Position numbers and translations under genes: made by a program. Shown here piece by piece: positions 5,815 through 18,171 of a DNA stretch of 32,000 nt (positions are counted from its first letter, which is position 1; every line of letters starts with the position of its first letter). The notes beneath the pieces are model-generated. The model searched no databases, was not told where the DNA came from, and saw only the letters and a program-made list of their open reading frames with translations. The DNA is from Sinorhizobium meliloti (GTDB lineage Bacteria; Pseudomonadota; Alphaproteobacteria; Rhizobiales; Rhizobiaceae): positions 480,001 through 512,000 of the forward strand of contig NZ_JAGIOS010000002.1 of the NCBI RefSeq assembly GCF_017876815.1, written 5' to 3'.

Positions 5815-5856
5815 GTCCCTTACCTCGCCGCTGGACTTCGTTGATGGCGAGTTTCA

Positions 5857-5881
5857 AACGGCGCGACCGTCCATTTGTTCC
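5857..5881 (-). promoter_or_regulatory. EcfG-type (general stress ECF sigma) promoter, perfect GGAAC-N16-CGTT
   Basis: The minus strand reads GGAAC AAATGGACGGTCGCGC CGTT. The -10 element ends 43 nt upstream of the DUF2934 ATG (5814). Confidence 0.7.
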
Positions 5882-5907
5882 CCCCCGGCTAGATCCGCGC
5901 GGGACCT

Positions 5908-6072
5908 TCATATGTGCTTTGGCGGCTCCGGATTTTCGTCCGGATTAGGGACCGGAATTTCATCCGGAAGGCGGTCTGGATCAGGCTCTTCGATCGGCGG
6001 TTCCGGATACCATGGCGGCAAGTCCGGCGGCGGCGGCTCGGGTACTGGCACCGGCTGACGCGGGTTCGGCAT
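5908..6072 (-). CDS. 54-aa proline/acidic-rich microprotein (hypothetical)
   Basis: Internal ATG 6072-6070 is preceded by GGGAGA. The product is MPNPRQPVPVPEPPPPDLPPWYPEPPIEEPDPDRLPDEIPVPNPDENPEPPKHI. An EcfG-like motif lies upstream. The longer track ORF (to 6222) would run through its own putative promoter. Confidence 0.45.
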   Translation of the reverse strand: MPNPRQPVPVPEPPPPDLPPWYPEPPIEEPDPDRLPDEIPVPNPDENPEPPKHI

Positions 6073-6118
6073 TTTCGTCTCCCTTGAGCATGCGGGGGCG
6101 ACACCCCTCTTTCGGGAC

Positions 6119-6143
6119 AATCCCGACCGTGCGTGATTGTTCC
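6119..6143 (-). promoter_or_regulatory. EcfG-like promoter, GGAAC-N16-GATT
   Basis: The minus strand reads GGAAC AATCACGCACGGTCGG GATT, 47 nt upstream of ATG 6072. Confidence 0.45.
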
Positions 6144-6173
6144 GCCGCCGGCGCAGGGAACGGGGCGAAGCGC

Positions 6174-6199
6174 GGAACCCTTTGGGTCGATCGCGGGTT
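6174..6199 (+). promoter_or_regulatory. EcfG-like promoter, GGAAC-N17-GGTT
   Basis: GGAAC CCTTTGGGTCGATCGCG GGTT, 41 nt upstream of ATG 6240. It is divergent from the 6119-6143 motif. Confidence 0.45.
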
Positions 6200-6239
6200 T
6201 GACCCAACATCAGCAAGAGCAAAAGCCAGGAGAGAGCCC

Positions 6240-6983
6240 ATGCCCAGACATCCGGACTATGGCAGATACGATCCCTACGGCCGTCGCGATTGGGCCCGCC
6301 GCGACTGGGAGAACGAGCGCCACCGCGACCCTTACAACTATGGATCCGAGCGCCGCGGTCGGGCGCGCAGCCGCTTCGATGAGGATGTCGAGCCGCGTGG
6401 CGCCGACTACGAGAGCTCGATGTCGTGGCCGACCGGGAGCTACCGCGGCGGCGAAAGCGAACGCGAACGCTGGAACGACGACGACTACGATCGCAGGGGC
6501 CGCGAGCGTTATTTCAGGGATTATCACGGGCCCGGTTATGGCTATCGCGGCGAGGGCCGTTACCGCGGTTATGGAGGTTACGGCGAAACACGCGATTATC
6601 GCCGCGACCGCGATTTTCTCGACCGCGCCAGCGACGAGGTCGCTTCCTGGTTCGGTGACGAAGATGCCGAGCGCAGACGGGAGATGGACCGGCACCGGGG
6701 CAAGGGTCCGAAAGGCTACAGGCGCACCGACGGCCGCATCCAGGAAGATGTCAGCGACCGCCTGAGCGACGACGGCGCTCTCGACGCCTCCAACATCGAA
6801 GTGAGCGTGACGAACGGCGAAGTACAGCTCCACGGGTCGGTGAGCTCGAAATGGGCGAAACGCCGCGCCGAGGACTGTGCCGAAAACGTATCCGGGGTCA
6901 CGAATGTACAAAACAATCTGCGCATAGAGACGGCGGATACCGGCACTGTCCAGCAGAACCCGAACCTCACCGATCTTAGTTGA
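6240..6983 (+). CDS. SWFGD/BON domain protein with a disordered R/D/Y/G-rich N-terminal half (hydrophilin-like)
   Basis: ATG 6240 is preceded by AGGAGAGAG. The SWFGDEDAERRR motif is followed by KGPKGYRRTDGRIQEDV and a C-terminal BON-like segment (IEVSVTNGEVQLHGSVSSKWAKRRAEDCAENVSGVTNVQNNL). The track ORF start (6012) is upstream of the promoter motif and is unlikely. Confidence 0.8.
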   Translation: MPRHPDYGRYDPYGRRDWARRDWENERHRDPYNYGSERRGRARSRFDEDVEPRGADYESSMSWPTGSYRGGESERERWNDDDYDRRGRERYFRDYHGPGYGYRGEGRYRGYGGYGETRDYRRDRDFLDRASDEVASWFGDEDAERRREMDRHRGKGPKGYRRTDGRIQEDVSDRLSDDGALDASNIEVSVTNGEVQLHGSVSSKWAKRRAEDCAENVSGVTNVQNNLRIETADTGTVQQNPNLTDLS

Positions 6984-7061
6984 GGCGATTGCGTGCGTGC
7001 GAGCCGAGGAGCGCCGCGTAAGCTTGCGCGGCGTCTTTGCCTAGATCAGCGGAAGGCGCGC

Positions 7062-7083
7062 GGAAAACCGCACACACTTTTCC
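7062..7083. repeat. Dispersed intergenic repeat core (GGAAAACCGCACACACTTTTCC), with a second copy at 26788-26809 in opposite orientation
   Basis: The reverse complement of 26788-26809 is GGAAAACCGCTACACACGTTTC, which differs from 7062-7083 by one indel and one mismatch. Both copies are intergenic. Confidence 0.6.
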
Positions 7084-7152
7084 TCATCCCGCTCTTAGCT
7101 AAGGCCTATCGAGATACCGCGGCGGCTTGTTTGATTTCCTCATCCCTGTGCT

Positions 7153-7256
7153 CGTCACAGGGATCCAGCCAGACCAAGTCCTTGGGCTGAAACAACGCTT
7201 CCCGCGCCGCAGACGCGGCGCTGCTCTCATCTCTGTGACAAGCACAGAGATGAGAG
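7153..7256. repeat. RIME/REP-like mosaic of three palindromic hairpins between convergent genes
   Basis: ATCCCTGTG-ctcgt-CACAGGGAT (7153-7175), GCGCCGC-agac-GCGGCGC (7204-7221) and CTCTCATCTCTGTG-acaag-CACAGAGATGAGAG (7224-7256). The CCCTGTG..CACAGGGAT type palindrome is familiar from rhizobial intergenic mosaic elements, from memory and not verified. Confidence 0.55.
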
Positions 7257-7361
7257 CGAGGAGAAATTGCGCCCGGCTACCTTGTCCGCACCGCCCTACG
7301 CGTCGACAAAAGCAATCATCTTGAAGCAGCCGTCAAAACTCGAGATGAATCTCAACAGGCC

Positions 7362-8504
7362 TTAGCTGGAAGCTCGCCGCTCTTCTGCGACCGATTTTGC
7401 CTGCCGCGCCCTGGAGCGCGCCGAGCGCTGAAGAAAGCTCAGCAAGCGCTGTTCCTCCACACGCAGTTCGCTGTCCAAGCGCCCGCGCGCCTGAAGCTGC
7501 CGTGCCGAGATCGAGGCCGACTTGTCGGCGAGAGCGAGCACATCGGGATGAATGTAGCTGCTCCGGCTGATGGCGGGGGTGTTGTGAAGAACGGACGCAG
7601 CCGCTTCGCTCATCTGTTTGATCGTCGGCCACTCGCCCTGTTCGATCGAAGTCCGGGCGGCCGTGAAAGCCGCGAGAGTGCCGCCCCAGGTCCGGAATGT
7701 CTTTGCAGAAACCGCTGTTCCGGCCACATCTGAAAGGTACCGGTTGAGCCGCCCGGAATCGACCGGCCGCAGGACGTCGTTTTCATCCTTCCAAACGAAA
7801 AGCTGTCTGCCCGGCAGATCCGCGATCTCTTCGAGCAACTGCTGCAATTTGGGGCGGCGGAGCAGGCGCTGGACGCGCTTGCCGCCCTTGCCGATGAATT
7901 TCAGCTCTATGAAGCCATCGCCCAGCCTGAGATGCCGCTTCAGCAGCGTCGTGGCACCATAGCTCCCATTGGCCTGCACGTAAGCCTGGTTGCCGGTGCG
8001 CAGATGGGCTTCGTCCAGCAGGGCCACCAGCGCAGCGAGCACGGTTTGCATGTTTTCCACGTCGCCCTGCATGTGGCGCCGTATGGTGCGGCGTATCTTG
8101 GGCAATGCCTTGCCGAATTCCACCAGTTGCGCGAATTTGTCGGCGCTCCTGAGAGCCTGCCACTCGCTGTGATAGCGGTACTGTTTTCGTCCGCGCGCAT
8201 CGTAGCCCGTAGCCTGCAGATGCCCCCGTTCTTCGAGGCAGATCCAGACGTTGTCATAGGCAGGCGGCAGGCCCAGCGCCGCTATGCGGCTTTTGATCAA
8301 CGGATCGGTAACGATCGAGCCGTCCGGCATTCGGTAGACAAACCCCTTGCCACGCCTTTGCCGCCGGATGCCCGGTTCGCTGTCGCTGACATAGACGAGC
8401 CCGGTTTCCTCGGGCACGTGACCGGCCGCCGCCAGGTTCCGCGGACCATCCGCGATCACGCAAGGCGGACATTCGAGCACGTCGACCGACGTTGCTCTAG
8501 CCAT
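7362..8504 (-). CDS. Bacterial (poxvirus-like) type IB DNA topoisomerase
   Basis: Start taken at ATG 8504-8502 (MARATSV...), with GGAGGGAGG just upstream. Family-typical GLVYVSDSEPGIRRQRRGKGFVY, HLQATGYDARGRKQYRYH, KFIGKGGKRV, SAKTFRTWGGT and a C-terminal catalytic-Tyr context SRSSYIHPDV. The start overlaps the glgX stop by 8 nt. Confidence 0.85.
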   Translation of the reverse strand: MARATSVDVLECPPCVIADGPRNLAAAGHVPEETGLVYVSDSEPGIRRQRRGKGFVYRMPDGSIVTDPLIKSRIAALGLPPAYDNVWICLEERGHLQATGYDARGRKQYRYHSEWQALRSADKFAQLVEFGKALPKIRRTIRRHMQGDVENMQTVLAALVALLDEAHLRTGNQAYVQANGSYGATTLLKRHLRLGDGFIELKFIGKGGKRVQRLLRRPKLQQLLEEIADLPGRQLFVWKDENDVLRPVDSGRLNRYLSDVAGTAVSAKTFRTWGGTLAAFTAARTSIEQGEWPTIKQMSEAAASVLHNTPAISRSSYIHPDVLALADKSASISARQLQARGRLDSELRVEEQRLLSFLQRSARSRARQAKSVAEERRASS

Positions 8505-10593
8505 TGCCTCCCTCCTGCGGCACGAAGGCGACGACGCTCTGCGCCGGGATAGTGTTGCGATCCGCGCTGGCGCGCATGCCGAACGGTTCGTCGGCTGCCG
8601 TGTCGAGCACGCGTAGCCAGCGCCTGCTTCCATTTCCGTGGGGCAGGGCTATCTCGCAATCACCGCCGGCATTGAGCACGAGGACGATCTCGCCGGCCGG
8701 CGGAGCTTCGACCTGCCCGACACGGCAGATATAGGCGCAGATCAGGCGGAGCTCAGCGTCGTGCCAGGCGTCCTCGTCCATCGGGTTGCCATCCGCCTTG
8801 TACCAGGCGATTTCGACTCGTCCATTGTCGTCGGGCTCTCCGTCGAGGAATCGTTCCTGCCGCAGGACAGGATGGTCCTTGCGGAAGGCGAGGAGCTTTC
8901 GGCAGAAATCCACGAAGCCATCGTCCGCCCCGCTCCAATCGAGCCAACCGATCTCGTTATCCTGGCAATAGGCGTTGTTGTTGCCCTGCTGGCTGTTTCC
9001 CAGCTCGTCGCCGCCGAGCACCATCGGCACGCCCTGGCTGATCATCAGGGTGGCGAGCATGGCCGCCCGCCGTCGCTTGCGGGCCTCGATGATCTCTCCG
9101 TTGTCGGTTGGGCCTTCGGCGCCCATGTTGTCGGAATGATTGTCGGAGTGACCGTCCCGGTTCTCCTCGCCGTTCGCCTCGTTGTGCTTTTCGCCGTACG
9201 AGACCGTGTCTGTCAGGGTGAAGCCGTCATGGGCGCTTACCAGGTTGATCGACGAGGTCGCGGCACGATCCGAATGCCTGAACTGAACCGGCGAGCCGAG
9301 AATGCGCTCGGCAAGCACCGGAACCATGCCGCCATCTCCCTTCCAGAAGCGCCGGACATCGTCGCGGAACCGGTCGTTCCATTCGCGGAACGGCGGCGGG
9401 AAACCGCCGAGCTGATAGCCGCCCTCGCCGACGTCCCAGGGTTCGGCGATCAGCTTCACACCCGCCAGAATCGGATCCTGCCGGATCGCGTCGAAAAAGC
9501 CGCCTTCGCGATCGAACTCCATGTATTCGCGGCCGAGCGTGCTTGCGAGATCGAAGCGGAAGCCGTCGATATGCATCACGCCCACCCAGTAACGCAGGCT
9601 GTCGAAGACCATGCGCAGCACCAGGGGATGGGCAACATTGAGCGTGTTGCCGGTGCCCGTCGTGTCGTAGGTGTGGCGCGGCTTGTCCGGCGACTGGCGG
9701 TAATAGCTGAAATTGTCGAGCCCGCGGAAGCTCAAGGTCGGGCCGCGTTCCGAACCCTCGGCCGTATGGTTGTAGACGACATCCATCAGAACTTCGATGC
9801 CGGCGGAATGAAACCGCTTCACCATCGTCTTGAATTCGGTAAAGCGGTCGCCCTTGAGATAGCGCTCGTGGGGAGCGAAGAATCCGAGCGTCTGATATCC
9901 CCAATAATTTCTGAGGTTCCGCTCCACCAGGTAGCGGTCGTCGAGGAAATACTGCACCGGCATCAATTCGATCGCCGAAACGCCGAGCTTCGTCAAGTGC
10001 TCGATGATCGGATCGCTCGCCATGCCGAGAAACGTGCCACGCAGCTCGTCCGGCACGCCGGGATGCGTCATGGTCATGCCGCGGACATGCGCCTCGTAGA
10101 TGATCGTTTCGGTCCAGGGACGGCGGATCGCTTCTTCGCCCGCCCAGTCGAAAGTCGGGTCCTGAACGACGCCCTTTACCATGAAGGGGGCGCTGTCGCG
10201 CTCGTCGAAGGAAAGATCGCCCTCAGGGCTGCCGATCGTATAGCCGAAGAGGGCATCGTCCCAGATGAGCTCACCCGCGACCAGCTTGGCGTAGGGGTCG
10301 AGCAGCAGCTTGTTCGGATTGAAGCGGTGACCATTGTGCGGGTCGTAAGGTCCGTGGGCGCGGTAGCCATAGAGGGTGCCGGGACCGATACCCTCGATGT
10401 AACCGGACCAGATATCGCCCTCGCGCTTCGGCAGAGGCATACGCGCCGTTTCCTCGCGTCCATCCTCGGAAAACAGGCAGAGTTCGATCTTCTCCGCATG
10501 CGCCGAGAAGACCGCAAAATGCGTCCCCTGCCCGGTGTATTCTGCACCGAGTTCAGGTTTCATGAAATCGAGTTCTGAAAAAGTCAGGTTCAT
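8497..10593 (-). CDS. glgX: Glycogen debranching enzyme GlgX (GH13 isoamylase type)
   Basis: 698 aa. LGAEYTGQGTHFAVFSAHAEKIELCLF, YGYRAHGPYDPHNGHRFNPNKLLLDPYAK, VYNHTAEG, DGFRFDLAS, EPWD and VSAHDGFTL are the GH13 conserved regions. GAGGG precedes ATG 10593. Confidence 0.92.
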   Translation of the reverse strand: MNLTFSELDFMKPELGAEYTGQGTHFAVFSAHAEKIELCLFSEDGREETARMPLPKREGDIWSGYIEGIGPGTLYGYRAHGPYDPHNGHRFNPNKLLLDPYAKLVAGELIWDDALFGYTIGSPEGDLSFDERDSAPFMVKGVVQDPTFDWAGEEAIRRPWTETIIYEAHVRGMTMTHPGVPDELRGTFLGMASDPIIEHLTKLGVSAIELMPVQYFLDDRYLVERNLRNYWGYQTLGFFAPHERYLKGDRFTEFKTMVKRFHSAGIEVLMDVVYNHTAEGSERGPTLSFRGLDNFSYYRQSPDKPRHTYDTTGTGNTLNVAHPLVLRMVFDSLRYWVGVMHIDGFRFDLASTLGREYMEFDREGGFFDAIRQDPILAGVKLIAEPWDVGEGGYQLGGFPPPFREWNDRFRDDVRRFWKGDGGMVPVLAERILGSPVQFRHSDRAATSSINLVSAHDGFTLTDTVSYGEKHNEANGEENRDGHSDNHSDNMGAEGPTDNGEIIEARKRRRAAMLATLMISQGVPMVLGGDELGNSQQGNNNAYCQDNEIGWLDWSGADDGFVDFCRKLLAFRKDHPVLRQERFLDGEPDDNGRVEIAWYKADGNPMDEDAWHDAELRLICAYICRVGQVEAPPAGEIVLVLNAGGDCEIALPHGNGSRRWLRVLDTAADEPFGMRASADRNTIPAQSVVAFVPQEGGNG

Positions 10594-10634
10594 TCAGTCG
10601 CGCCCTCTACCGCCTTGCCCGGCAGCTTTGATGC

Positions 10635-10659
10635 AACGCGACGGGCAGGCATTTGTTCC
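10635..10659 (-). promoter_or_regulatory. EcfG-type promoter, perfect GGAAC-N16-CGTT, upstream of glgX-topIB
   Basis: The minus strand reads GGAAC AAATGCCTGCCCGTCG CGTT. The -10 ends 42 nt upstream of the glgX ATG (10593). Confidence 0.7.
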
Positions 10660-10680
10660 TCTCCCCGAACGGGTGCCGGG

Positions 10681-10706
10681 GGAACTTTCCCAGCCTTCGG
10701 CCAGTT
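10681..10706 (+). promoter_or_regulatory. EcfG-like promoter, GGAAC-N17-AGTT, upstream of treZ
   Basis: GGAAC TTTCCCAGCCTTCGGCC AGTT, 30 nt upstream of ATG 10736. It is back-to-back with the glgX promoter motif. Confidence 0.45.
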
Positions 10707-10735
10707 CCTCGCCTTTCATCTCGAGGGACATATCG

Positions 10736-12541
10736 ATGCCGGCAGGTTCGACGCGTGCACATTTCAGAAACAGCTGGGGCGCGAATTTCATCGACGGCGA
10801 CACATGCCGGTTTCGTTTGTGGGCTCCCGACGAGCGGGGCGTCGATCTGGTTCTCGGCGGCGCCGCGCATAAGATGCAGTCGCTCGACGGCGGCTGGTTC
10901 GAAATCACGCTCGCGGCGAAGGCGGGAGAGCGCTATTGCTTCCGCCTTGCCGACGGCACCAAGGTGGCCGATCCCGCCTCCTCGGCACAGGAGCGGGAAG
11001 CGTCGGGTACTTCGATCGTCGTCGATCACGCCGCCTATGAATGGCAGGCTTTCTCCTGGCGCGGCAGGCCCTGGGAGGAGGCGGTCATTTCGGAGTTGCA
11101 TGTCGGCTGCTTCACGCCGGAGGGCACCTTCCGCGCTGCAATCGAGCGCTTGCCGCATCTGGCAGAGGCCGGAATCACTGCGATCGAGATCATGCCCGTC
11201 GCGCAATTCCCCGGTGTGCGGGGCTGGGGCTACGACGGCGTGCTGCACTATGCTCCGCACAATGCCTACGGGAAGCCGGATGACCTGAAGGCGCTCGTGG
11301 ATGCGGCCCATTCGCTGGGTCTGACGGTCCTGCTCGATGTCGTTTACAACCACTTCGGCCCGGAGGGGAATTATCTTTCGCGCTATGCGAGCCGCTTCTT
11401 CAACAAGGATCGCCCGACACCGTGGGGGGCGTCGATCGCCTTCGAGGAGGAAGCGGTCCGGCGCTATTTCATCGAGAACGCGCTCTACTGGCTCGGCCAT
11501 TTCCGTTTCGACGGATTGCGTCTCGATGCGACCGAACAGATCCGCGATACGACCAAGCCGCATTTTCTCGTCGCGCTGGAGCACGAGCTTCGGCACACGT
11601 TCGCCGAGCGGCAAATCCACCTGGTGCTGGAAGACGCTCACCGCCGCAGAAGCCTTCTGCAGCGCGACGCGAGCGGCGCGCGCATGCTTTTCGATGCGGC
11701 ATGGAACGACGATCTTCACAATGCCCTCCACGTCGTGGCGACCGGCGAAACCAAGGGCCACTATCGCCTTTTCGCGGACGAGCCCTGGGGCAAGATCCGC
11801 AACGCGCTGACCGAAGGCTTCGCCGTGCCGGCAAAGGAGGACAATTTCTCTCCTGAGGGGAGCCGAGCCCGCGTGCCGCCGCAAGGCCGCGTGAATTTCC
11901 TGCAGAACCACGACCAGATCGGCAACCGCGCCTTCGGCGAACGTCTCGCCTCGCTCCTCCAGGAGGACAGCCTGCGCGTGTTGGCGGCCATGCACATGCT
12001 GACGCCGCAAATCCCTCTCCTGTTCATGGGTGAAGAATACGGCGAGACGCAGCCCTTCTTTTTCTTCTCCGACTACCAGGGGGAAATAGCCGAGGCTATC
12101 CGGCTGGGACGCCGGGACGAAGCCGAAAATTTCGGCGGCCTTCCAGAGGGCAAGACGATGGATGATCTGCCCGATCCGCTCGACCCGGACGTCTTTGCCG
12201 GTTCGAAGCTACGTTGGAACCGCGCGACAAGCCCTGCCGGCGAGCGGCATCTTGCCTATATGCGCGACCTCGCCGGGATAAGGCAGCGGCACATCGTACC
12301 GCTGATCGCCGGCACCGCCGTACCGGATGGCCGTGCATACGAGACCAAGGACGGCATCATCGCTGTCGACTGGCAGTTCGGGGAGGCTTGCCTGGAATTG
12401 CGCGTCAATCTTTTGCACGAGACACACGCCGTACCCGCAATACGCGGTCAGCCGATCTTCGCGAGCGAAACGTCCGGTGTCGAGACCGTCTACGGCAGCG
12501 AGTTGGCCGGCCCTGGCATCGTCGTCGCCATTGCACGGTGA
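10736..12541 (+). CDS. treZ: Malto-oligosyltrehalose trehalohydrolase TreZ (GH13)
   Basis: ATG 10736 is preceded by GAGGGA. HFRNSWGANFIDGDTCRFRLWAP is a typical TreZ N-terminus. Also VYNHFGPEGNYL, DGLRLDATEQI, VLEDA and NHDQIGNRAFGERL. Confidence 0.9.
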   Translation: MPAGSTRAHFRNSWGANFIDGDTCRFRLWAPDERGVDLVLGGAAHKMQSLDGGWFEITLAAKAGERYCFRLADGTKVADPASSAQEREASGTSIVVDHAAYEWQAFSWRGRPWEEAVISELHVGCFTPEGTFRAAIERLPHLAEAGITAIEIMPVAQFPGVRGWGYDGVLHYAPHNAYGKPDDLKALVDAAHSLGLTVLLDVVYNHFGPEGNYLSRYASRFFNKDRPTPWGASIAFEEEAVRRYFIENALYWLGHFRFDGLRLDATEQIRDTTKPHFLVALEHELRHTFAERQIHLVLEDAHRRRSLLQRDASGARMLFDAAWNDDLHNALHVVATGETKGHYRLFADEPWGKIRNALTEGFAVPAKEDNFSPEGSRARVPPQGRVNFLQNHDQIGNRAFGERLASLLQEDSLRVLAAMHMLTPQIPLLFMGEEYGETQPFFFFSDYQGEIAEAIRLGRRDEAENFGGLPEGKTMDDLPDPLDPDVFAGSKLRWNRATSPAGERHLAYMRDLAGIRQRHIVPLIAGTAVPDGRAYETKDGIIAVDWQFGEACLELRVNLLHETHAVPAIRGQPIFASETSGVETVYGSELAGPGIVVAIAR

Positions 12542-12560
12542 CACGCCATCGGCAGACAGT

Positions 12561-12585
12561 GGAACATGCCCTGAGCCTCACGGTT
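12561..12585 (+). promoter_or_regulatory. EcfG-like promoter, GGAAC-N16-GGTT, upstream of the UdgX-like gene
   Basis: GGAAC ATGCCCTGAGCCTCAC GGTT in the 86-nt treZ-udgX gap, 43 nt upstream of ATG 12628. Confidence 0.5.
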
Positions 12586-12627
12586 AGACATCGCGGCGAG
12601 AACAAAGAGGGAGAGTCTCGAGGAACG

Positions 12628-13269
12628 ATGCCGAAACAGCTTGCGAACCTTGGCCCGGCCCTTGCCGGCGAACACGCCGAGGCAACGACGATTGCCTCTC
12701 TGCGGCGGCAGGCGGAGGGGTGCGAGCGCTGCGACCTCTACAAGAACGCTACGCAACTGGTCTTCGGCGAGGGTCCGGTCGACGCCCGTGTCGTGCTCGT
12801 CGGCGAACAGCCCGGCGACCGCGAGGACCTTGCCGGGCGCCCGTTCGTCGGACCCGCCGGGCGCATCCTGGACGAGTGCCTGCACGAAGCCGGCATCGAC
12901 CGGTCGGAATGCTATCTCACCAATGCCGTTAAACACTTCAAATTCGAACAGCGCGGCAAGCGCCGAATGCATTCGCGGCCGAACGCCGGTGAGATTCAGG
13001 CCTGCGCCTGGTGGCTCGGCGCCGAACTCGATGAGCTCCGCCCCGAAATCGTCGTCGCGCTCGGGGCAACGGCGCTGATGTCCCTGCTCGGGCGAAGCGT
13101 GGGTGTCACCAGGAACCGCGGCCAGCTTCTGACGGCCCCCGGGGGCTTCTCCGTGCTCGTGACCATCCACCCCTCCTATCTTCTGAGAATCCGAGGCCGA
13201 TCCGACCCCGAAGCGGAACGCGCCCGGTTTGTCGACGATCTCGCTAAGGTGGCGACTCGCATCGGTTGA
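12628..13269 (+). CDS. udgX: Family-4-related uracil-DNA glycosylase of the UdgX type (GEQPG motif plus KRRMH loop)
   Basis: ATG 12628 is preceded by GAGGAA. Fe-S cysteines are present (CERCDL, ECYLTN, QACAW). Motif A is LVGEQPGDRED..GRPFVGPAG and motif B is IHPSYLLR. The insertion NAVKHFKFEQRGKRRMHSRP corresponds to the KRRIH loop that defines M. smegmatis UdgX. Confidence 0.8.
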   Translation: MPKQLANLGPALAGEHAEATTIASLRRQAEGCERCDLYKNATQLVFGEGPVDARVVLVGEQPGDREDLAGRPFVGPAGRILDECLHEAGIDRSECYLTNAVKHFKFEQRGKRRMHSRPNAGEIQACAWWLGAELDELRPEIVVALGATALMSLLGRSVGVTRNRGQLLTAPGGFSVLVTIHPSYLLRIRGRSDPEAERARFVDDLAKVATRIG

Positions 13270-13273
13270 CCGG

Positions 13274-13996
13274 TCAGGACTGCCGGTCGAGTTCCGGATA
13301 GTGGCGGAAGACGCAGGATTCGTTGAAGGCAAGCCGCCGCTCCGAGGCCAGATAGCTCAGAATTCTCGGCCGTGCACGAACGGCATCGTGCAAGGCGACC
13401 AGTCCGGGAATGTTTGTCTCATAGGCATCCATCGCCTTGGGAAAGGCATAGCGAAGTCCTTCGATCACCTGGAAAAGCGAAAGATCGACGTAGCTCAGCC
13501 GGTCCCCGACCATATGTTCCGGGCCCCTGGGATTTTGTGTGAGCACGCGTTCGAAATAGCCGAAAAACTTCGGCAGGCGCTCCGAGAGGAAATCGGCCGA
13601 CCGCCTCAGCGCTTCAGGCTTCTGGTCCTCATAATAGAGCGACAAGGCGACCGGATGGTGCGTGTCGTGAATCTCCGCGACGAAGTCGGTGATCGTCAGC
13701 TGCAGACCATTGGTGAGGGTTCGAAGCCTCTCGTCCTCAGCAACGAGGCCGAGCCTCGGCCCGAGATAAAAAAGTATGTTGGCGACGTGGCTTATGACGA
13801 GGTCGCCATCGATGAGGAACGGGGGAGCGAAGGGAGCGGCGGCTTCACCGGGCATCTTCATCAGCTTCAGCATTTCATTCGTGCCGCCCGGCTGGCGGGC
13901 AATGTCGAGGTAATCCGCGCCGGCCTCCTCCAGCGCAAGGCGCACGAATTCACCTCGACCGGGAATGCCGTCCCAGTAATAGAGCTTGTATGGCAT
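13274..13996 (-). CDS. Glutathione S-transferase family protein
   Basis: Internal ATG 13996-13994 (MPYKLYYWDGIPGRGEFVRLALEEAGADY...). GST N-terminal thioredoxin-like and C-terminal helical pattern (SYVDLSLFQVIEGL). Confidence 0.8.
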   Translation of the reverse strand: MPYKLYYWDGIPGRGEFVRLALEEAGADYLDIARQPGGTNEMLKLMKMPGEAAAPFAPPFLIDGDLVISHVANILFYLGPRLGLVAEDERLRTLTNGLQLTITDFVAEIHDTHHPVALSLYYEDQKPEALRRSADFLSERLPKFFGYFERVLTQNPRGPEHMVGDRLSYVDLSLFQVIEGLRYAFPKAMDAYETNIPGLVALHDAVRARPRILSYLASERRLAFNESCVFRHYPELDRQS

Positions 13997-14189
13997 GAAA
14001 GGTCCCCTTCTTTGCCAGCATTCATCTTGGTTCGCCGCCGAAGTCTTTTCCTGGCTCGTTCTCGCCTTTCGCGAACCCCCGTGCTCCGAGCTATCTTCTT
14101 GTATCGGCACGATTGAAGGAAAAATACAGCCGCGGAATTCGTTCCGGTTCGGCAGGGAAACAGAACATCCTGCGTCGAGGAGAAAACCA

Positions 14190-14729
14190 ATGAAAATCGA
14201 AGAGCTCATGTTCGCCGAAAGCGGCGGCGTACCAAACAACCCGCGCCTGCCGGTCCTGGTCTATCGTCAAGCGATCGACGTTACGGAAAATGGAGCCACA
14301 CGGATAGAGGAAAGCTTCAGGGCCAATGGTTGGCGCGGCCTGTGGCGCGACGGCGTCTTTGCCCATCACCATTACCATTGCGGTGCGCACGAGGTTCTCG
14401 GGATCGCGGAAGGCCGGGCACGGCTGCTGATCGGAGGGCCGGACGGTCAGGAGGTCGAGGTCGCTGCCGGCGACGCCATCCTCCTCCCCGCGGGTACGGG
14501 CCACCGCCGGAACGAAGCAAGCGTGGATTTCCTGGTCGTCGGCGGCTATCCGCCGGGGCAGGACGCCGGGATTCAGAGCGGCGCCGCGACCGCGGATGAC
14601 CGTGAGGCGATCGTCTCGGTGCCGCTGCCGAGCCTTGACCCCATTCTCGGCGCCGAGGGACCTGCGGTCACGGTCTGGCAGTCCGCCATGCATGCGGAAC
14701 GCGGTCTCGGCGAACGACAGGGCCACTGA
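14190..14729 (+). CDS. Cupin domain protein (YjlB-like)
   Basis: ATG 14190 is preceded by GGAGAA. HHHYHCGAHEVLGIAEGRARLLIGG...GDAILLPAGTGH is a cupin two-motif pattern. Confidence 0.7.
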   Translation: MKIEELMFAESGGVPNNPRLPVLVYRQAIDVTENGATRIEESFRANGWRGLWRDGVFAHHHYHCGAHEVLGIAEGRARLLIGGPDGQEVEVAAGDAILLPAGTGHRRNEASVDFLVVGGYPPGQDAGIQSGAATADDREAIVSVPLPSLDPILGAEGPAVTVWQSAMHAERGLGERQGH

Positions 14730-14745
14730 TCACTCGCCGCAATCG

Positions 14746-14961
14746 TCAGCGCAGCCAGACGGGGAGATCGGCGGCCGTGCGGCAGCCCGCTGGCCGCTCT
14801 TTCAGTCCCAATTTTTCCCAGGCGAATTTCTGGGCCGCGACCTGTGCCATTTCCTTGGTCTCGTAGATGTCCGGCAGCACATATGCCTTACGGCCACACG
14901 ACAGGAGCGCCCTGTGACTCAGCAGATCGTAGTGAAGCTCGAGGTATTCTTCGGAATGCAT
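14746..14961 (-). CDS. 71-aa hypothetical protein
   Basis: Internal ATG 14961-14959 (MHSEEYLELHYDLL...) is preceded by GGGAGGG. A perfect EcfG motif lies 27 nt upstream. Confidence 0.5.
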   Translation of the reverse strand: MHSEEYLELHYDLLSHRALLSCGRKAYVLPDIYETKEMAQVAAQKFAWEKLGLKERPAGCRTAADLPVWLR

Positions 14962-14987
14962 GGAACCCTCCCAGGTGGCGAGAGGAA

Positions 14988-15012
14988 AACGGCGGCCGTC
15001 GCGGGAAGTTCC
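14988..15012 (-). promoter_or_regulatory. EcfG-type promoter, perfect GGAAC-N16-CGTT
   Basis: The minus strand reads GGAAC TTCCCGCGACGGCCGC CGTT, 27 nt upstream of ATG 14961. Confidence 0.65.
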
Positions 15013-15053
15013 ATGAAGCCCGCCGATTGCTGGGATGGCAAGGGCTGCCCGAC

Positions 15054-15078
15054 GGAACATAGACGTCGCTTCCGAGTT
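15054..15078 (+). promoter_or_regulatory. EcfG-like promoter, GGAAC-N16-AGTT
   Basis: GGAAC ATAGACGTCGCTTCCG AGTT, 25 nt upstream of ATG 15103 and 41 nt from the divergent 14988-15012 motif. Confidence 0.5.
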
Positions 15079-15102
15079 GATGACGCTTACGGGAGGTCAG
15101 TC

Positions 15103-15438
15103 ATGAGCACGAACAAGCATGGAGAACCGCGCCCGGGGGCTGATGCGCGCCCGCTCGATCCCCCGAGCGTCGACGAGCCGATCGACGCATGGGGGCGAGA
15201 TCGGAAGAGCGCGCCAGAGGTCGGAAACCAACTCGACGAACTGCGCGAGCGGATCGCCCGGCTTCAAGCCGAAATCGACGCCATCGCAACCGAGACCCAC
15301 ACGGCCGTCGGCACCGTGCCCGGAGCCGACAGGCTCGAAACAGCGAGAGACGTGGTTGCCGAAAAGCGCGACGAGATCAAGCGCCTGACGGCGCGTCTCG
15401 AAGAGATCGAGCGGACGCTTGGCGGCAGCGCCGCCTAG
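15103..15438 (+). CDS. 111-aa hypothetical protein with a predicted coiled-coil C-terminal half
   Basis: ATG 15103 is preceded by GGGAGG. Heptad-like LDELRERIARLQAEIDAIATE...EKRDEIKRLTARLEEIERTL. Confidence 0.6.
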   Translation: MSTNKHGEPRPGADARPLDPPSVDEPIDAWGRDRKSAPEVGNQLDELRERIARLQAEIDAIATETHTAVGTVPGADRLETARDVVAEKRDEIKRLTARLEEIERTLGGSAA

Positions 15439-15448
15439 TTTACTCGAT

Positions 15449-15625
15449 CTAAAACACGGTCATCCACACGCCGCGCCAGAAAAGCGAGTTCGGGTCATCG
15501 AGGCGTTCGCAATCGTCCGTCGCAGGCTTCCTGATCTTTGCAGATGCCGGCTTGCGGTCGTTTGCGGGAGGGACAGGGCGCCCTTCGCGTTCCGTCGCGG
15601 GCTCCGGTTTTTTGATCGTTAGCAT
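15449..15625 (-). CDS. Possible unannotated 58-aa ORF (below the track cutoff)
   Basis: My translation from ATG 15625-15623 reads MLTIKKPEPATEREGRPVPPANDRKPASAKIRKPATDDCERLDDPNSLFWRGVWMTVF, ending at TAG 15451-15449. AAGGA lies about 9 nt upstream. Third codon positions are GC-rich. It is on the same strand and downstream of 15705..15974. Confidence 0.3.
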   Translation of the reverse strand: MLTIKKPEPATEREGRPVPPANDRKPASAKIRKPATDDCERLDDPNSLFWRGVWMTVF

Positions 15626-15704
15626 CGCGAGATCCTTTCCGCCGTAAAGGCGTTTCCGGCCTCAAGTGCTCCTTCCGCTTCCGTCTCCGAGTTCCTTCTT
15701 CGGT

Positions 15705-15974
15705 TCAGTGCCGGTGAATGAATTTACAGAACCGGCTGGGTTGCCCGTCGTCAGTCATGTCCTGATGGAGGAAAGCCAGATTCTCCTCGTCGAAGATCTT
15801 GAAGAATTCGTCCCAGGAAATTTTCTCCAGCGTGTCTTCCGGCTTGCCGAAATCAACGCGGAGGAGACCACCACCGTCTTCGGTCGCGCCCTTCACGCGC
15901 GCCGGCTGTCCTTTGCGGGCCTCTATCCAATTGCGGATTGTGTCGTGGTCGATCGTAGTCATCGCAGCGGTCAT
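15705..15974 (-). CDS. 89-aa conserved hypothetical stress-type protein
   Basis: ATG 15974-15972 (MTAAMTTIDHDTIRNWIEARKGQPARVKG...ISWDEFFKIFDEENLAFLHQD) has GGAG 6 nt upstream. I recall this sequence type as a widespread uncharacterised small protein. Confidence 0.65.
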   Translation of the reverse strand: MTAAMTTIDHDTIRNWIEARKGQPARVKGATEDGGGLLRVDFGKPEDTLEKISWDEFFKIFDEENLAFLHQDMTDDGQPSRFCKFIHRH

Positions 15975-16068
15975 CGGAAACTCCATGAACTGGGATGCCG
16001 GAGGCGCCTCGAGCGCCATCTTCAGCGGCAGGGAACGCGGTGTGCCCTCACCGCGCCCTAGCTGTGTA

Positions 16069-16093
16069 AATCGATCGCTGCGCTTATTGTTCC
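16069..16093 (-). promoter_or_regulatory. EcfG-like promoter, GGAAC-N16-GATT
   Basis: The minus strand reads GGAAC AATAAGCGCAGCGATC GATT, 95 nt upstream of ATG 15974 and immediately after the DUF763 stop. Confidence 0.4.
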
Positions 16094-16096
16094 GCC

Positions 16097-17238
16097 TTAG
16101 CGCCGCGCGCGGTCGCCTGGCACCGCGGCGGTTGCCTCGTCGTCGTGCGGTTCCCAGCCGAATATGCTGCGCCCGCCGAAACGCGCGGAGTCCCTGAATT
16201 CGCCCGCGACGATCTCCTTGAGGTCGGGGCCCGTGACGTAGCGCTCCAGCCGGCGCGACTGCTCGTCGAGCCGCTTCAGCGCCGCAAGCTCTTCCTGGCG
16301 CCCGAGGCGGCCCTTGCTGACCGCTGATTTCATGATCCTGATCGTCTCGTCATAGACTTTCAACGGCACCGGGAACGGATGGCGGTCCTTGCCGCCATGG
16401 GCGAGCGAAAAGCGGGCGGGGTCCGAGAACCTGCATGGCGTCCCGTGGACCACCTCCGCGACCATCGCCAGCGCCTTGACCGTCCGCGCGCCGACGCCTG
16501 GCACCAGCAGCAGGTCCTTGAAGTCCTCCGGACCACGGTCGGCGGCGGCGGCGAAGTTGCCGTGAAGGCGCCGGAGATTGACGTCGCTTTCGCGCACGTC
16601 GTGATGGGTGGGCATGAAGAGATGAGGCAGCATCGGCTGTGCCAGCGCGGCCACAGGAGCCCCACGAGACTCGACCCGGGCGACCTCGCGCAGGAGCCCG
16701 TCGGGCCCGAGGGACTGGAGGAGATCCAGCTGCGCAGTCCGCGAGGCGGCGGCGCGGCGGTCGGCAAGATTGACGATCTCGCCCTGTTCTCTGCCTTCAA
16801 TCGCGCTATGCGGCGCGTCGACGAAGCTTGTCAGGCCCTCCGAGAGCCAGTGATAGCGCCTCGCCTGCCGGCGGTCGCCGTTCATGCCCTGCTGGACGAC
16901 CACCCACCTGGCATCGTCCGTGACGATGAAACCGTGCAGGTAGAGATCGAAGCCGTCCTGAACGGCGGCACTGTCGACCTTGGCGACGAGGCGGCTCGCT
17001 TCTGCCAATGCGCCGCCGTCGAAACCGACGCGATCGCCAATCGACACGAGTTCGCCCGGCGTCTTGCGGGAGTGCTGGCCGCGGCCGCCGCAGACATGGA
17101 TGCCCAGCTCGCCGGCAACCGGGGTGAGACCACGTTTCAACGCACCGATGACGCTCGTGGTGATACCGGAGGAATGCCAGTCCATGCCCATGACGGCACC
17201 GAAGGACTGGAACCAGAACGGATGCGCAAGCCGCCTTA
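16097..17238 (-). pseudogene. DUF763 protein, C-terminal ~380 codons, separated from its N-terminus by an IS insertion
   Basis: RLAHPFWFQSFGAVMGMDWHSSGITTSVIGALKRGL... matches DUF763 as I recall it. It contains an HhH-like motif, LLLVPGVGARTVKALAMVAE. The reading frame continues artefactually into the IS end (track ORF 16097..17536). Confidence 0.8.
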
Positions 17239-18171
17239 GAGTCGGACTCGAAAAGGTTTCAACGATATCCATATCTTGCAAGGCGTCTGGTGAGCATGCG
17301 GATGTGAGCGATGGTGATCCACGCTTCTGCTGAAGCGACGGATTTTTCGAAGTCCTTGGCCAGTCTGCGGCATCGACCCAGCCAGGCGAAGGTCCGCTCG
17401 ACGACCCAGCGGCGCGGCAGGATTTCAAAACCCTTGGCCTTGTCGGAACGTTTGATGATTTCGAGTGTCCATTTCCCGATTTTCTGCAGCCGCTTTTTGA
17501 GCTTGTCGCCCGCATAGCCGCCATCAGCGAAGACATGAAGCAACCACGGCCACCGGTTTTTGATGGATTTCAGGAGATCGGGAGCGCCGTCGCGATCCTG
17601 AATATCGGCGCTGTGCACCATGAGGCCGACCATCAGCCCGAGCGTGTCGACAATGATGTGGCGCTTGCGGCCCTTAATCTTCTTGCCTGCATCAAAGCCA
17701 CGGATACCGCCGCTTTCCGTCGTTTTAACGCTTTGGCTGTCGATCGCGCCCGCTGTCGGCGAGGCTTCTTTCCCCTCCAATTCCCGCGCCTCCATGACGA
17801 GGTGATGGTTGATCCGTGGCCAAAGACCCATTGCCCGCCATTCATAGAAATATCGCTGCACCGTCGAACAGGGCGGAAAGTCCTTCGGCAGCATCCGCCA
17901 CTGGCAGCCTGTCGAAGCGATATAGAGAAGGGCGTTTAAAACATCGCGCAAATCAGTCTTGCGCGGACGACCCAGACGCCGTGGCGCAGGCATGAACGGT
18001 GCAACAAAATCCCATTCGCGATCCGTGACATCGCTTGCATATCCGCTCGTCCGCCGGACATAATTGCGCCGGGTGGTTTCAGTCCAGGCCATCGTGATCT
18101 CCATCGAATCTTTGCAAATCCGACGGAATCACAACTGGCTGAAATCACTCAATTCTTTTTGAGGCAGCCTC
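17239..18171 (-). mobile_element. IS5-family insertion sequence, 933 bp, with a 3-bp TTA target duplication
   Basis: The ends are GAGTCGGACTCGAAAAGG (17239-) and the reverse complement of the right end, GAGGCTGCCTCAAAAAGA (-18171), matching at 13 of 18 positions. TTA is present at 17236-17238 and 18172-18174. It carries a single DDE transposase ORF. Size and the TNA duplication resemble the IS1031/IS427 subgroups (inference). Confidence 0.85.
17259..18092 (-). CDS. IS5-family DDE transposase
   Basis: MAWTETTRRNYVRR...DREWDFVAPFMP...GRPRKTDLRDVLNALLYIASTGCQWRMLPKDFPP..TVQRYFYEW...IDSQSVKT...VFADGGY...RWVVERTFAWL. GGAG lies 8 nt before ATG 18092. The track start at 18104 is an alternative. Confidence 0.9.
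   Translation of the reverse strand: MAWTETTRRNYVRRTSGYASDVTDREWDFVAPFMPAPRRLGRPRKTDLRDVLNALLYIASTGCQWRMLPKDFPPCSTVQRYFYEWRAMGLWPRINHHLVMEARELEGKEASPTAGAIDSQSVKTTESGGIRGFDAGKKIKGRKRHIIVDTLGLMVGLMVHSADIQDRDGAPDLLKSIKNRWPWLLHVFADGGYAGDKLKKRLQKIGKWTLEIIKRSDKAKGFEILPRRWVVERTFAWLGRCRRLAKDFEKSVASAEAWITIAHIRMLTRRLARYGYR

Follow-up and report, generated by a model that had tools for sequence, protein, structure and literature searches.

Why a cell should make a glycosylase that crosslinks itself to the cell's own DNA is a question on which one gene of Sinorhizobium meliloti offers a physiological handle. The chemistry of UdgX is well understood, and the protein is widely used as a tool for detecting uracil in DNA. 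In the 32,000-nucleotide stretch of DNA analysed here (the window; features lie on the plus strand unless noted), the initial annotation had placed a UdgX-type enzyme with its own stress-type promoter at positions 12561–13269. The end of this span is right, but 12561 is the first base of a promoter-like motif and the gene, udgX, starts at 12628. Its coding sequence (12628–13269; 213 aa plus stop) runs from the ATG at 12628 to a stop codon ending at 13269 and is defined by the ORF translation, a PDB match, matches to TIGR03914 and PF03167, and public annotation. The locus belongs to the S. meliloti replicon pSymB. Strain 1021 carries the gene as SMb21448 and CP050561.1 lists it as HB772_34265; the window protein and SMb21448 of strain 1021 are identical at 212 of 213 residues. 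RefSeq annotates the gene as "UdgX family uracil-DNA binding protein", and supplementary tables carry SMb21448 under the old name "DNA polymerase related protein". A 280-aa ORF on the opposite strand (12490–13332) was taken to be a shadow ORF of the high-GC sequence.

Similarity searches place the product firmly within one branch of the uracil-DNA glycosylases (UDGs). A PDB search returned approximately 24 UdgX chains (including 6AJO) with an E value of 2e-54, whereas family-4 chains matched at 1e-33 to 1e-35, and the protein from Mycobacterium smegmatis is 52% identical across the whole fold. The NCBIfam model for UdgX, TIGR03914, scores 290.7 bits (cut-off 189.95) over profile positions 39–231, which correspond to the glycosylase domain with the fusion linker absent, whereas family-4 models other than UdgX score far lower (137.5 bits); PF03167, which represents the UDG-superfamily fold, matches with an E value of 1.4e-36. 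The gene belongs, as a stand-alone form, to the UdgX branch of the family-4 UDGs, and by homology its product is predicted to crosslink to DNA.

The initial annotation had further claimed induction under general stress, and published expression data agree with it. SMb21448 had a signal log ratio of 3.26 ± 0.50 upon rpoE2 overexpression in one microarray study (PMC3616915) and a logFC of 2.87 (adjusted p 3e-19) in a second microarray set with rpoE2 overexpression (PMC6180224), both on a log2 scale. RpoE2 dependence is taken here from these published tables, in which induction was achieved by overexpression of the sigma factor. Transcription of udgX depends on the general stress sigma factor RpoE2. 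The upstream gene treZ (SMb21447) is also rpoE2-dependent, with a log ratio of 5.55 (PMC3616915), and both genes lie in a 10-kb RpoE2-controlled cluster that also encodes BON, CBS, and DUF2934 proteins, a topoisomerase IB (4 kb upstream of udgX), glgX2, gst12, and a cupin; the gene downstream of udgX encodes a glutathione S-transferase. Literature searches found no paper text linking UdgX to the general stress response, EcfG, or PhyR. The UdgX naming and the rpoE2 dependence are already public, and the identity of the gene is no discovery; what is new here is a conserved candidate promoter of RpoE2 type directly 5' of udgX.

Two sources of the udgX transcript have to be considered. The first is the promoter of treZ (10736–12541), which encodes malto-oligosyltrehalose trehalohydrolase (by annotation and by Pfam alpha-amylase and DUF3459 matches) and lies immediately upstream of udgX. 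Its published RpoE2 promoter (10681–10707; PMC3616915, Table S19) has a start mapped to position 1376831 of strain 1021, which is window position 10714. In the 86-nt spacer between treZ and udgX, which is identical in strain 1021, we found no terminator-like site and no sigma-70-like promoter, and the spacer RNA has no unusual structure (z = +0.74). The treZ promoter probably also drives udgX by read-through.

The second source would lie within the spacer itself. The GGAAC-N16-GGTT motif that had been reported upstream of the gene is present, with GGAAC at 12561–12565 and, after 16 nt, GGTT at 12582–12585, leaving 42 nt between its end and the ATG. Read as an RpoE2 (EcfG-type) promoter, the candidate (12561–12586) consists of a -35 element GGAACAT (12561–12567), a 13-nt spacer, and a -10 element CGGTTA (12581–12586), with a start predicted 7–9 nt past the -10 element at about 12593–12595 (about 1378710–1378712 in strain 1021) and a 5' UTR of about 33–35 nt that would include a purine-rich ribosome-binding region (GGAGAG ... 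GAGGA, 12610–12624), read from the sequence ahead of the ATG. A loose pattern of the GGAAC-N16-GGTT type is weak by itself (0.47 matches expected per window). We scored the site with a weight matrix constructed from 53 published RpoE2 promoters with mapped start sites, all outside the window. The candidate scores 16.27 bits, at the 41st percentile of the published promoters and above the validated promoters of treZ (14.28 bits) and SMb21444 (13.69 bits), and its -35 element, spacer length, and -10 element are identical to those of the validated SMb20340 promoter. At this score approximately 0.18 sites are expected by chance in a random 32 kb on both strands and approximately 2.4e-4 in the 86-nt spacer on the correct strand. 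Judged from these sequence features, it is very probable that the candidate at 12561–12586 acts as a second RpoE2 promoter.

To assess conservation, we collected related loci. The best match in a scan of our genome collection was 66% identical and no Sinorhizobium was among the matches listed, and we therefore took the Sinorhizobium loci from a plasmid collection. The candidate promoter is kept in S. meliloti M162, S. medicae, and S. fredii, and Sinorhizobium sp. B11 has an equivalent site: there treZ is on the opposite strand, yet GGAACAA-N13-CGGTTA stands 27 nt before udgX. Across four Sinorhizobium sequences all 7 positions of the -35 element are unchanged, as is the GTT within the -10 element, whereas the invariant share in the same sequences is 5% for the upstream spacer and 18% for the 5' UTR. 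At two further loci (L004 and L078) the upstream gene is different or divergent and udgX is still preceded by such a site.

The preferred reading, transcription of udgX from both promoters, competes most directly with one in which udgX has no working promoter and is only the second gene of a treZ–udgX operon transcribed from the RpoE2 promoter of treZ, the spacer motif being inactive or negligible. The co-induction of the two genes and the 86-nt spacer without a terminator-like structure fit that arrangement, as does the genome-wide map, which gives treZ one RpoE2 start and assigns SMb21448 none (TSS total 0; PMC3616915). Because no start is mapped at SMb21448, one is mapped at treZ, and no terminator lies between them, the promoter of udgX stays a candidate: of the original claim that the gene has its own stress-type promoter, the motif, its score, and its conservation hold up, but the only mapped RpoE2 start lies upstream of treZ. 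However, a motif that scores like a median validated promoter, where about 2.4e-4 sites were expected, argues against an inert spacer, as does the invariance of the -35 element and of GTT while the flanks decay, and the site persists where treZ is divergent (B11) or the upstream gene is a different or divergent one (L004, L078). The map has also missed the starts of other rpoE2-dependent genes with strong motifs, for example SMb21454, which is rpoE2-dependent and absent from the map as a start site (PMC3616915), yet has a 17.3-bit site 47 nt upstream. We consider transcription from the treZ promoter alone unlikely.

If the spacer promoter functions, comparable sites might be expected before udgX in other genomes, and here the domain architecture of the relatives has to be taken into account. 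Among the matches listed, 50 of the 84 related loci encode a UdgX domain fused to a TIGR03915 domain. These TIGR03915–TIGR03914 fusions, the commonest relatives in Mesorhizobium, Sphingomonas, and Agrobacterium among the matches listed, are about 465–490 aa long with TIGR03915 at the N-terminus, carry the same catalytic motifs in a UdgX domain that is 53–63% identical, and are encoded directly after a radical SAM gene, TIGR03916 (as at L006 and L014, where this gene immediately precedes the fusion gene). S. meliloti udgX is without either feature: a profile search of the 213-aa protein gave no TIGR03915 match, which the fused relatives do show, and the annotation of the 14 kb on each side of udgX contains no radical SAM gene. 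The initial annotation had likewise seen no radical SAM partner here; the partnership to which it referred is real but belongs to the fused subtype of relatives and not to the S. meliloti gene.

The fusions also bear on how promoter-like sites are counted, as their linker codons (tGG-AGG-AAC-CTT-CCC-GAG-GCC-TCG-CTC-ATT) score 13.2–13.7 bits as false promoters. A strict pattern, GGAAC-N17/18-GTT, occurred at 8 of 80 loci among the matches listed and was superseded by the weight matrix; the first weight-matrix count, 36 of 80 loci with at least 12 bits (again among the matches listed), was largely an artefact of the coding sequence of the fusion-gene linker. Because most matches in that first test encode a conserved linker peptide in fusion genes, we recomputed the enrichment on stand-alone loci only. 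Among the matches listed, 9 of 29 loci with stand-alone udgX genes of other alphaproteobacterial species carry a site scoring 14 bits or more in the roughly 220 nt before the gene (10 with L010, which was left out because its site is decayed coding sequence of the fusion-gene linker). Against a null rate of 1.3% per ~220-nt upstream window this is an enrichment (p ~7e-11, and 1.5e-7 after collapsing to lineages). EcfG-type sites before stand-alone udgX recur in several rhizobial lineages, and UdgX seems to be a recurring component of the general stress response in Alphaproteobacteria.

The same linker raises a different explanation for the S. meliloti site, namely that GGAAC...GTT consists of decaying codons for the linker W-(K/R)-N-(L/M)-P-E-A-S-L of an ancestral radical-SAM-linked fusion, shared through recent common descent and without promoter function. 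Besides the large fused share of relatives (50/84 among the matches listed) and the 13.2–13.7 bits of their linker codons, this is suggested by the S. meliloti site itself, which reads W-N-M-P-*-A-S-R-L in one frame, and by the distance from the Trp codon to the start Met, 83 nt in S. medicae versus 84 nt in the fusions, which makes the positions colinear. However, a tblastn search of the Sinorhizobium spacers with fusion linkers as queries gave nothing significant (best E value 6.6), significant homology starts only inside the udgX ORF at about residue 9, and neutral decay would not keep the -35 element at 7 of 7 positions together with GTT while the nearby spacer is 5–18% invariant. We regard a functionless relic as improbable, and descent from a linker would in any case still allow present promoter function.

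The reading of udgX as a stress-induced crosslinker depends also on the protein, and the critical residues of UdgX are known: E52, Q53, N91, H109, H178, and R184, together with the signature residue R107 (PMC10359453). Their counterparts are all present and aligned in the S. meliloti protein. Motif A, GEQPG (residues 59–63, 12802–12816), aligns to residues 51–55 of M. smegmatis UdgX with E60 and Q61 as the counterparts of E52 and Q53, and is present in 85 of 85 relatives among the matches listed. NAVKHF (residues 99–104, 12922–12939) contains N99, equivalent to the uracil-binding N91, and H103, equivalent to H95, the histidine that stands in for the third Fe-S cysteine; this element, too, is found in 85 of 85 relatives among the matches listed. 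Motif B, HPSYLLR (residues 181–187, 13168–13188), contributes H181 (H178) and R187 (R184); its fourth residue, Tyr, is outside the published HPS(S/A)(L/V)(L/V)R with H178 and R184 (PMC10359453), and Tyr or Phe occupies this position in 73 of 85 alphaproteobacterial relatives among the matches listed. Both GEQPG and HPS can thus be seen in the translation of the 213-aa product, as originally described. The Fe-S cysteines described with them are in part correct: Fe-S ligands are present, but as three Cys and one His (C32, C35, H103, and C126) rather than four Cys. This Cys-Cys-His-Cys set is found in 85 of 85 relatives among the matches listed and corresponds to the UdgX ligand set, with His in place of one Cys (PMC4787834).

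The R-loop is KRRMH (residues 111–115, 12958–12972). In the alignment to PDB 6AJO and related chains and by BLASTP, it matches KRRIH (105–109) of M. smegmatis UdgX column for column, with R113 on R107, and H115 is therefore the equivalent of H109, whose nucleophilic attack creates the bond to C1' of the abasic sugar (PMC10359453). The proposal that KRRMH is the UdgX R-loop was borne out by this alignment. The accompanying description of the segment FEQRGKRRMHSRP as an insertion was mistaken, as it is not longer than the mycobacterial loop and is two residues shorter just before GKRR. Among the 85 relatives in the matches listed, the loop reads GK(R/K)R(I/L/M)H, with Ile, Leu, and Met all occurring at the fourth position. 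That the protein is an ordinary turnover family-4 UDG or a tight noncovalent binder of uracil-DNA despite its UdgX-like loop, as the Met that replaces Ile in the loop, the Tyr of motif B, the shorter lead-in to the loop, and the conversion of M. smegmatis UdgX to a turnover glycosylase by single H109 changes (PMC10359453) might suggest, is very improbable against an aligned set of H115, R113, E60, Q61, N99, H181, and R187, the scores of 137.5 bits for ordinary family-4 models versus 290.7, and a survey in which all checked sequences that carry R107 and H109 turned out to be UdgX and Q53 co-occurred with R107 and with H109, each in more than 98% of UdgX proteins (PMC10359453).

The explanation that we favor, and hold to be probable, is that udgX encodes a UdgX-type crosslinker that depends on RpoE2 for its transcription, by read-through from treZ and from the spacer promoter, and that may cap abasic sites under stress. 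By homology, the Fe-S protein would flip uracil out of the DNA, H181 and N99 would pull on the base until the glycosidic bond breaks, and E60 would activate H115 of the KRRMH loop for its attack on C1' of the sugar, leaving one protein covalently bound per abasic site with no turnover. The transcript would come from read-through from the treZ promoter and from the second RpoE2 promoter in the 86-nt spacer. In nongrowing, stressed cells, uracil-derived abasic sites may in this way be capped and kept from break-prone base excision repair, and RecA-dependent repair might deal with the DNA–protein adducts afterwards.

In the proposal of Sang et al. (PMC4787834), UdgX shields DNA at times of plentiful uracil, with RecA-dependent repair as the subsequent step. 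A stress-induced udgX fits this proposal of protection under conditions in which uracil accumulates and ordinary excision is dangerous, and makes it testable in a tractable model organism; with family membership and rpoE2 dependence already on record, the added value is moderate and incremental. A broader picture can be offered tentatively, as a possibility and not as the expected outcome: stand-alone udgX genes of Rhizobiales may be regular members of the EcfG/RpoE2 regulon, the glycosylase being made purposely in nongrowing, stressed cells to convert uracils into protein-capped abasic sites that are resolved upon regrowth, alongside RpoE2-controlled end joining and topoisomerase IB. The Sinorhizobium promoter may in that case derive from the linker codons of an ancestral fusion, given the resemblance that these codons already bear to an EcfG promoter.

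Among known systems, the closest is M. smegmatis UdgX (MSMEG_0265; PDB 6AJO, 6AIL, 6IO9, and 8IIE), likewise a stand-alone protein of about 210 aa, whose covalent complex with uracil-DNA withstands SDS, urea, and heat and which does not turn over (PMC10359453, PMC4787834). In the literature such a complex is documented for this enzyme and, briefly, for Bll3023 (PMC5449639). The two proteins have in common GEQPG, the Asn equivalent to N91, KRR(I/M)H with its His nucleophile, HPSxLLR, and the Cys-Cys-His-Cys set. Where the mycobacterial protein has Ile in the loop and Ser in motif B, the S. meliloti protein has Met and Tyr, and its lead-in to the loop is shorter by two residues. Unlike the M. 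smegmatis gene, S. meliloti udgX has an alphaproteobacterial host and an expression tied to the EcfG-type factor RpoE2; we found no regulatory information on MSMEG_0265 in the literature. Bll3023 of Bradyrhizobium diazoefficiens, a UdgX homologue that was purified and, in a brief mention, reported to behave as its class predicts (PMC5449639), is like SMb21448 a rhizobial protein of the UdgX class, the likeness being one of class; nothing on its regulation was found in the literature. UdgX proteins were noted as toxic in ung- Escherichia coli (PMC5449639). Canonical family-4 UDGs, such as Thermus thermophilus UDGA (1UI0) and Thermotoga TM0511 (1VK2), share the fold, the Fe-S cluster, and the motif A/B architecture, but have GE(A/G)PG, Pro and Asn at the loop positions of Arg and His, four Cys ligands, and turnover (PMC10359453).

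With respect to regulation, the nearest parallel is end joining by ku3-ku4 and ligD4 of S. meliloti, which is RpoE2-controlled from GGAAC...GTT promoters in a manner proposed to be general across Alphaproteobacteria (PMC6379672, which mentions neither SMb21448 nor uracil). Like udgX, these genes place DNA repair under the general stress sigma factor, but they belong to another pathway and encode unrelated proteins. SRAP-domain proteins (HMCES and YedK) also form covalent adducts with abasic sites, as a self-sacrificing cap that shields the site from cleavage. They differ from UdgX in having an unrelated fold, in linking through a thiazolidine formed by an N-terminal Cys, and in acting without base excision on existing abasic sites in single-stranded DNA.

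The udgX gene (SMb21448 of strain 1021) is a forward-strand ORF whose ATG lies at 12628 and whose stop codon ends at 13269, and its 213 aa product carries the motifs GEQPG (residues 59–63), NAVKHF (residues 99–104), KRRMH (residues 111–115), and HPSYLLR (residues 181–187). Because the ORF, these motifs, and an upstream GGAAC-N16-GGTT element were all located in the sequence, the observation made in the initial annotation is accurate. Over this region the sequence matches pSymB of Sinorhizobium meliloti RCAM1115 at 100% identity; the RCAM1115 annotation already names the udgX product "UdgX family uracil-DNA binding protein" and places treZ upstream of the gene and a glutathione S-transferase gene, in convergent orientation, downstream. 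The strain 1021 counterpart bears the old name "putative DNA polymerase related protein". Strain 1021 and the window have the same treZ-udgX spacer, and their UdgX proteins match at 212 of 213 residues.

The product is 52% identical to M. smegmatis UdgX (BLASTP), about 24 chains of which are the top PDB matches (E about 2e-54), compared with E values of 1e-33 to 1e-35 for ordinary family-4 glycosylases, and it scores 290.7 bits against the NCBIfam UdgX model TIGR03914 (cut-off 189.95). KRRMH had been proposed to be the UdgX R-loop, and it aligns exactly with KRRIH 105–109 of the mycobacterial protein, with H115 corresponding to H109 and R113 to R107, the two residues that form the signature of the class (PMC10359453). 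Likewise, E60, Q61, N99, H181, and R187 correspond to E52, Q53, N91, H178, and R184. Two details of the initial annotation need revision: the loop region, described as an insertion, is not longer than its mycobacterial counterpart but shorter by two residues, and only three of the Fe-S ligands are cysteines, the set being Cys-Cys-His-Cys. This ligand set, GEQPG, NAVKHF, and GK(R/K)R(I/L/M)H are universal in the 85 alphaproteobacterial relatives listed, and 73 of these 85 domains have an aromatic residue at the fourth position of motif B (HPSYLLR- or HPSFLLR-type). In S. meliloti this residue is Tyr184 (13177–13179), where the published consensus has Ser or Ala; structural studies appear to have covered none of the proteins with an aromatic residue here. 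By every criterion defined at the level of sequence, the udgX product is a member of the UdgX class, whose biochemical hallmark is a covalent complex with DNA that is stable to SDS. Rhizobial UdgX homologs had been reported in 2015 and 2017, and the purified Bradyrhizobium homolog Bll3023 was reported to behave as the class predicts (PMC5449639).

The stress induction proposed for udgX is documented in published tables based on overexpression of rpoE2, which encodes the EcfG-type general stress sigma factor: SMb21448 has a signal log ratio of 3.26 ± 0.50 (Schlueter et al. 2013, Table S18, PMC3616915) and a logFC of 2.87 with an adjusted p of 3e-19 (Lang et al. 2018, PMC6180224). Despite this record, we found no discussion of SMb21448 in paper text. 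The same tables list as rpoE2-dependent the neighbors SMb21441, 21442, 21444, 21445 (topoisomerase IB), 21446 (glgX2), 21447 (treZ, 5.55), 21449, 21450, and 21452; therefore, udgX sits within a cluster of general-stress genes. A weight matrix derived from 53 RpoE2 promoters in the literature whose start sites are mapped, none of them taken from the window, finds seven sites of at least 16.27 bits within 5856–16093, starting at 5881(−), 6143(−), 10659(−), 12561(+), 15012(−), 15054(+), and 16093(−), compared with 0.18 expected by chance per random 32 kb. Two weaker validated sites (6174(+) and 10681(+)) bring the total to nine, and for six of the nine both the promoter and its mapped start site are published, namely those of SMb21442, 21444, 21446, 21447, SMb_ORF_15, and 21452.

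Several further features of the cluster were recorded. The minus-strand sites at 16068–16093 (17.3 bits, 47 nt upstream of SMb21454) and 6118–6143 (16.9 bits, inside the old SMb21443 gene call) have no counterpart among the published promoter entries compared. The glgX2 and treZ promoters are divergent and back to back (10635–10708), and since GGAACTTTCCCAGCCTTCGGCCAGTTCC, the promoter of treZ, is close to a palindrome, a minus-strand site is scored there too (12.0 bits at 10708). The topoisomerase IB gene (7362–10593, minus strand; Pfam Topoisom_I and Top1B_N_bact), which overlaps the end of glgX2 and is rpoE2-dependent (3.48 and 2.85), lies within the stress cluster, 4 kb upstream of udgX, and encodes a second enzyme with a covalent DNA-protein intermediate. 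The published RpoE2 promoter of gst12 (SMb21449) in strains 1021 and M162 is GGAACGA-N13-ATGTTT; here (14121–14145, minus strand) the conserved G of the −10 element is changed (ATTTTT), which may weaken stress induction of this glutathione S-transferase gene. A gene for a DUF763 protein (16097–17536, minus strand; Pfam E 5.6e-103) adjoins the cluster.

The initial annotation assigned udgX a stress-type promoter of its own. The motif, GGAAC (12561–12565) and GGTT (12582–12585) on the plus strand, lies in the 86-nt spacer behind treZ and ends 42 nt before the ATG. The published start-site map, which has no entry for SMb21448, counts against this assignment, and it places an RpoE2-type start site of treZ at 1376831 of strain 1021, that is, at window position 10714 (PMC3616915). 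Examination of spacer sequence and RNA structure found no terminator-like structure between treZ and udgX, so read-through from the treZ promoter is likely. The map is incomplete, however, because SMb21454 is rpoE2-dependent (2.87) and unmapped yet has a 17.3-bit site 47 nt upstream. The udgX site, GGAACAT-N13-CGGTTA, scores 16.27 bits, which is the 41st percentile of published RpoE2 promoters and exceeds the validated treZ (14.28) and SMb21444 (13.69) promoters; about 2.4e-4 such sites are expected by chance on the correct strand of the spacer. Its −35 heptamer, its −10 hexamer, and the distance between them are exactly those of the validated SMb20340 promoter. A comparison of S. meliloti (two strains) with S. 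medicae and S. fredii shows no change at any of the seven −35 positions or in the GTT of the −10 element, whereas the flanks contain indels and are invariant at 5% (upstream spacer) and 18% (5′ UTR) of positions. By its pattern of conservation, the site is a phylogenetic footprint across Sinorhizobium, and in Sinorhizobium sp. B11, where treZ lies on the opposite strand, GGAACAA-N13-CGGTTA still precedes udgX. Score and footprint favor the proposed promoter, which we consider likely to be genuine. We conclude that RpoE2 controls udgX, through likely read-through from treZ and, probably, through this second promoter as well.

We scanned relatives at one genome per species (at least 80 alphaproteobacterial loci), and the weight matrix initially gave an apparent upstream site in 36 of the 80 loci listed. 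Most of these were rejected on inspection as coding sequence of a fusion linker. In 50 of 84 loci listed, the UdgX domain makes up the C-terminal half of a larger protein (~470–490 aa), and the codons of the linker, ...EMPKKYW(K/R)N(L/M)PE(A/T)(S/A)L..., run tGG-AGG-AAC-...-ATT/GTT and thereby look like an EcfG promoter; the codons of YW(K/R)N(L/M)PE(A/T)(S/A)L score 13.2–13.7 bits. The mimic precedes the UdgX-domain match by ~60–120 nt in the numbered loci L003, L006–L008, L011, L013, L014, L020, L033, L054, L060, L066, L068, L075, and L076. Variation of the linker at synonymous positions indicates constraint on coding. Such codons can mislead promoter scans, and new promoters might arise from them. 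The fusions combine TIGR03915, the fused N-terminal domain, with TIGR03914 and lie directly downstream of the radical SAM gene TIGR03916, which explains the radical SAM partner mentioned in the initial annotation: the partner is real but accompanies the fused subtype. S. meliloti udgX is of the stand-alone subtype, like the mycobacterial gene, and the annotation shows no radical SAM gene in the 14 kb to either side of it. L010 (about 5876–6001) and L062 have interrupted or out-of-frame homology to the linker upstream of the UdgX domain and may be fusions in decay toward the stand-alone form, or else the product of misassembly in metagenome bins.

A recount was limited to 29 stand-alone loci from other species and to sites of at least 14 bits within ~220 nt upstream. 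Nine loci have such a site (ten with L010, left out because its site is decayed linker sequence); at a null rate of 1.3% per upstream stretch scanned, p is about 7e-11, or 1.5e-7 when collapsed to six lineages (Rhizobium, Pseudorhizobium, Phyllobacterium, two Mesorhizobium groups, and Variibacter). The gene upstream of udgX varies among these loci and is sometimes divergent. Thus, an EcfG-type promoter before stand-alone udgX is recurrent beyond S. meliloti. In L005 (5946–5972), L019 (5896–5921), and L078 (5929–5953), the −10 element ends 5–8 nt before the best-guess start codon, which would imply leaderless mRNAs or misassigned start codons.

One reading frame of the S. meliloti site gives W-N-M-P-*-A-S-R-L and that of S. 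fredii W-N-M-P-T-A-S-R-F, both linker-like, and the distance from the linker-like Trp codon to the start Met is 83 nt in S. medicae and 84 nt in fusions. From this resemblance one might speculate that the Sinorhizobium promoter was recruited out of the remains of a fusion gene; tblastn of the linker against Sinorhizobium spacers gave no significant match at the promoter site (best E 6.6).

Family membership (RefSeq) and rpoE2 dependence (supplementary tables) are already public. New here are quantitative arguments that udgX has a conserved RpoE2 promoter in the spacer, the recurrence of such promoters before stand-alone udgX in several rhizobial lineages, and an explicit tie of UdgX to the general stress response of Alphaproteobacteria, a link that we found in no paper text. 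By homology, UdgX made during the general stress response would excise uracil, after which H115 would bond to C1′ of the abasic sugar, at the cost of one dead protein per lesion. Such production would fit a model proposed by Sang et al., in which UdgX shields DNA at times of abundant uracil and the adducts then pass to RecA-dependent repair (PMC4787834). RpoE2-controlled udgX also has a parallel within S. meliloti itself, where end-joining genes are likewise controlled by RpoE2 (PMC6379672).
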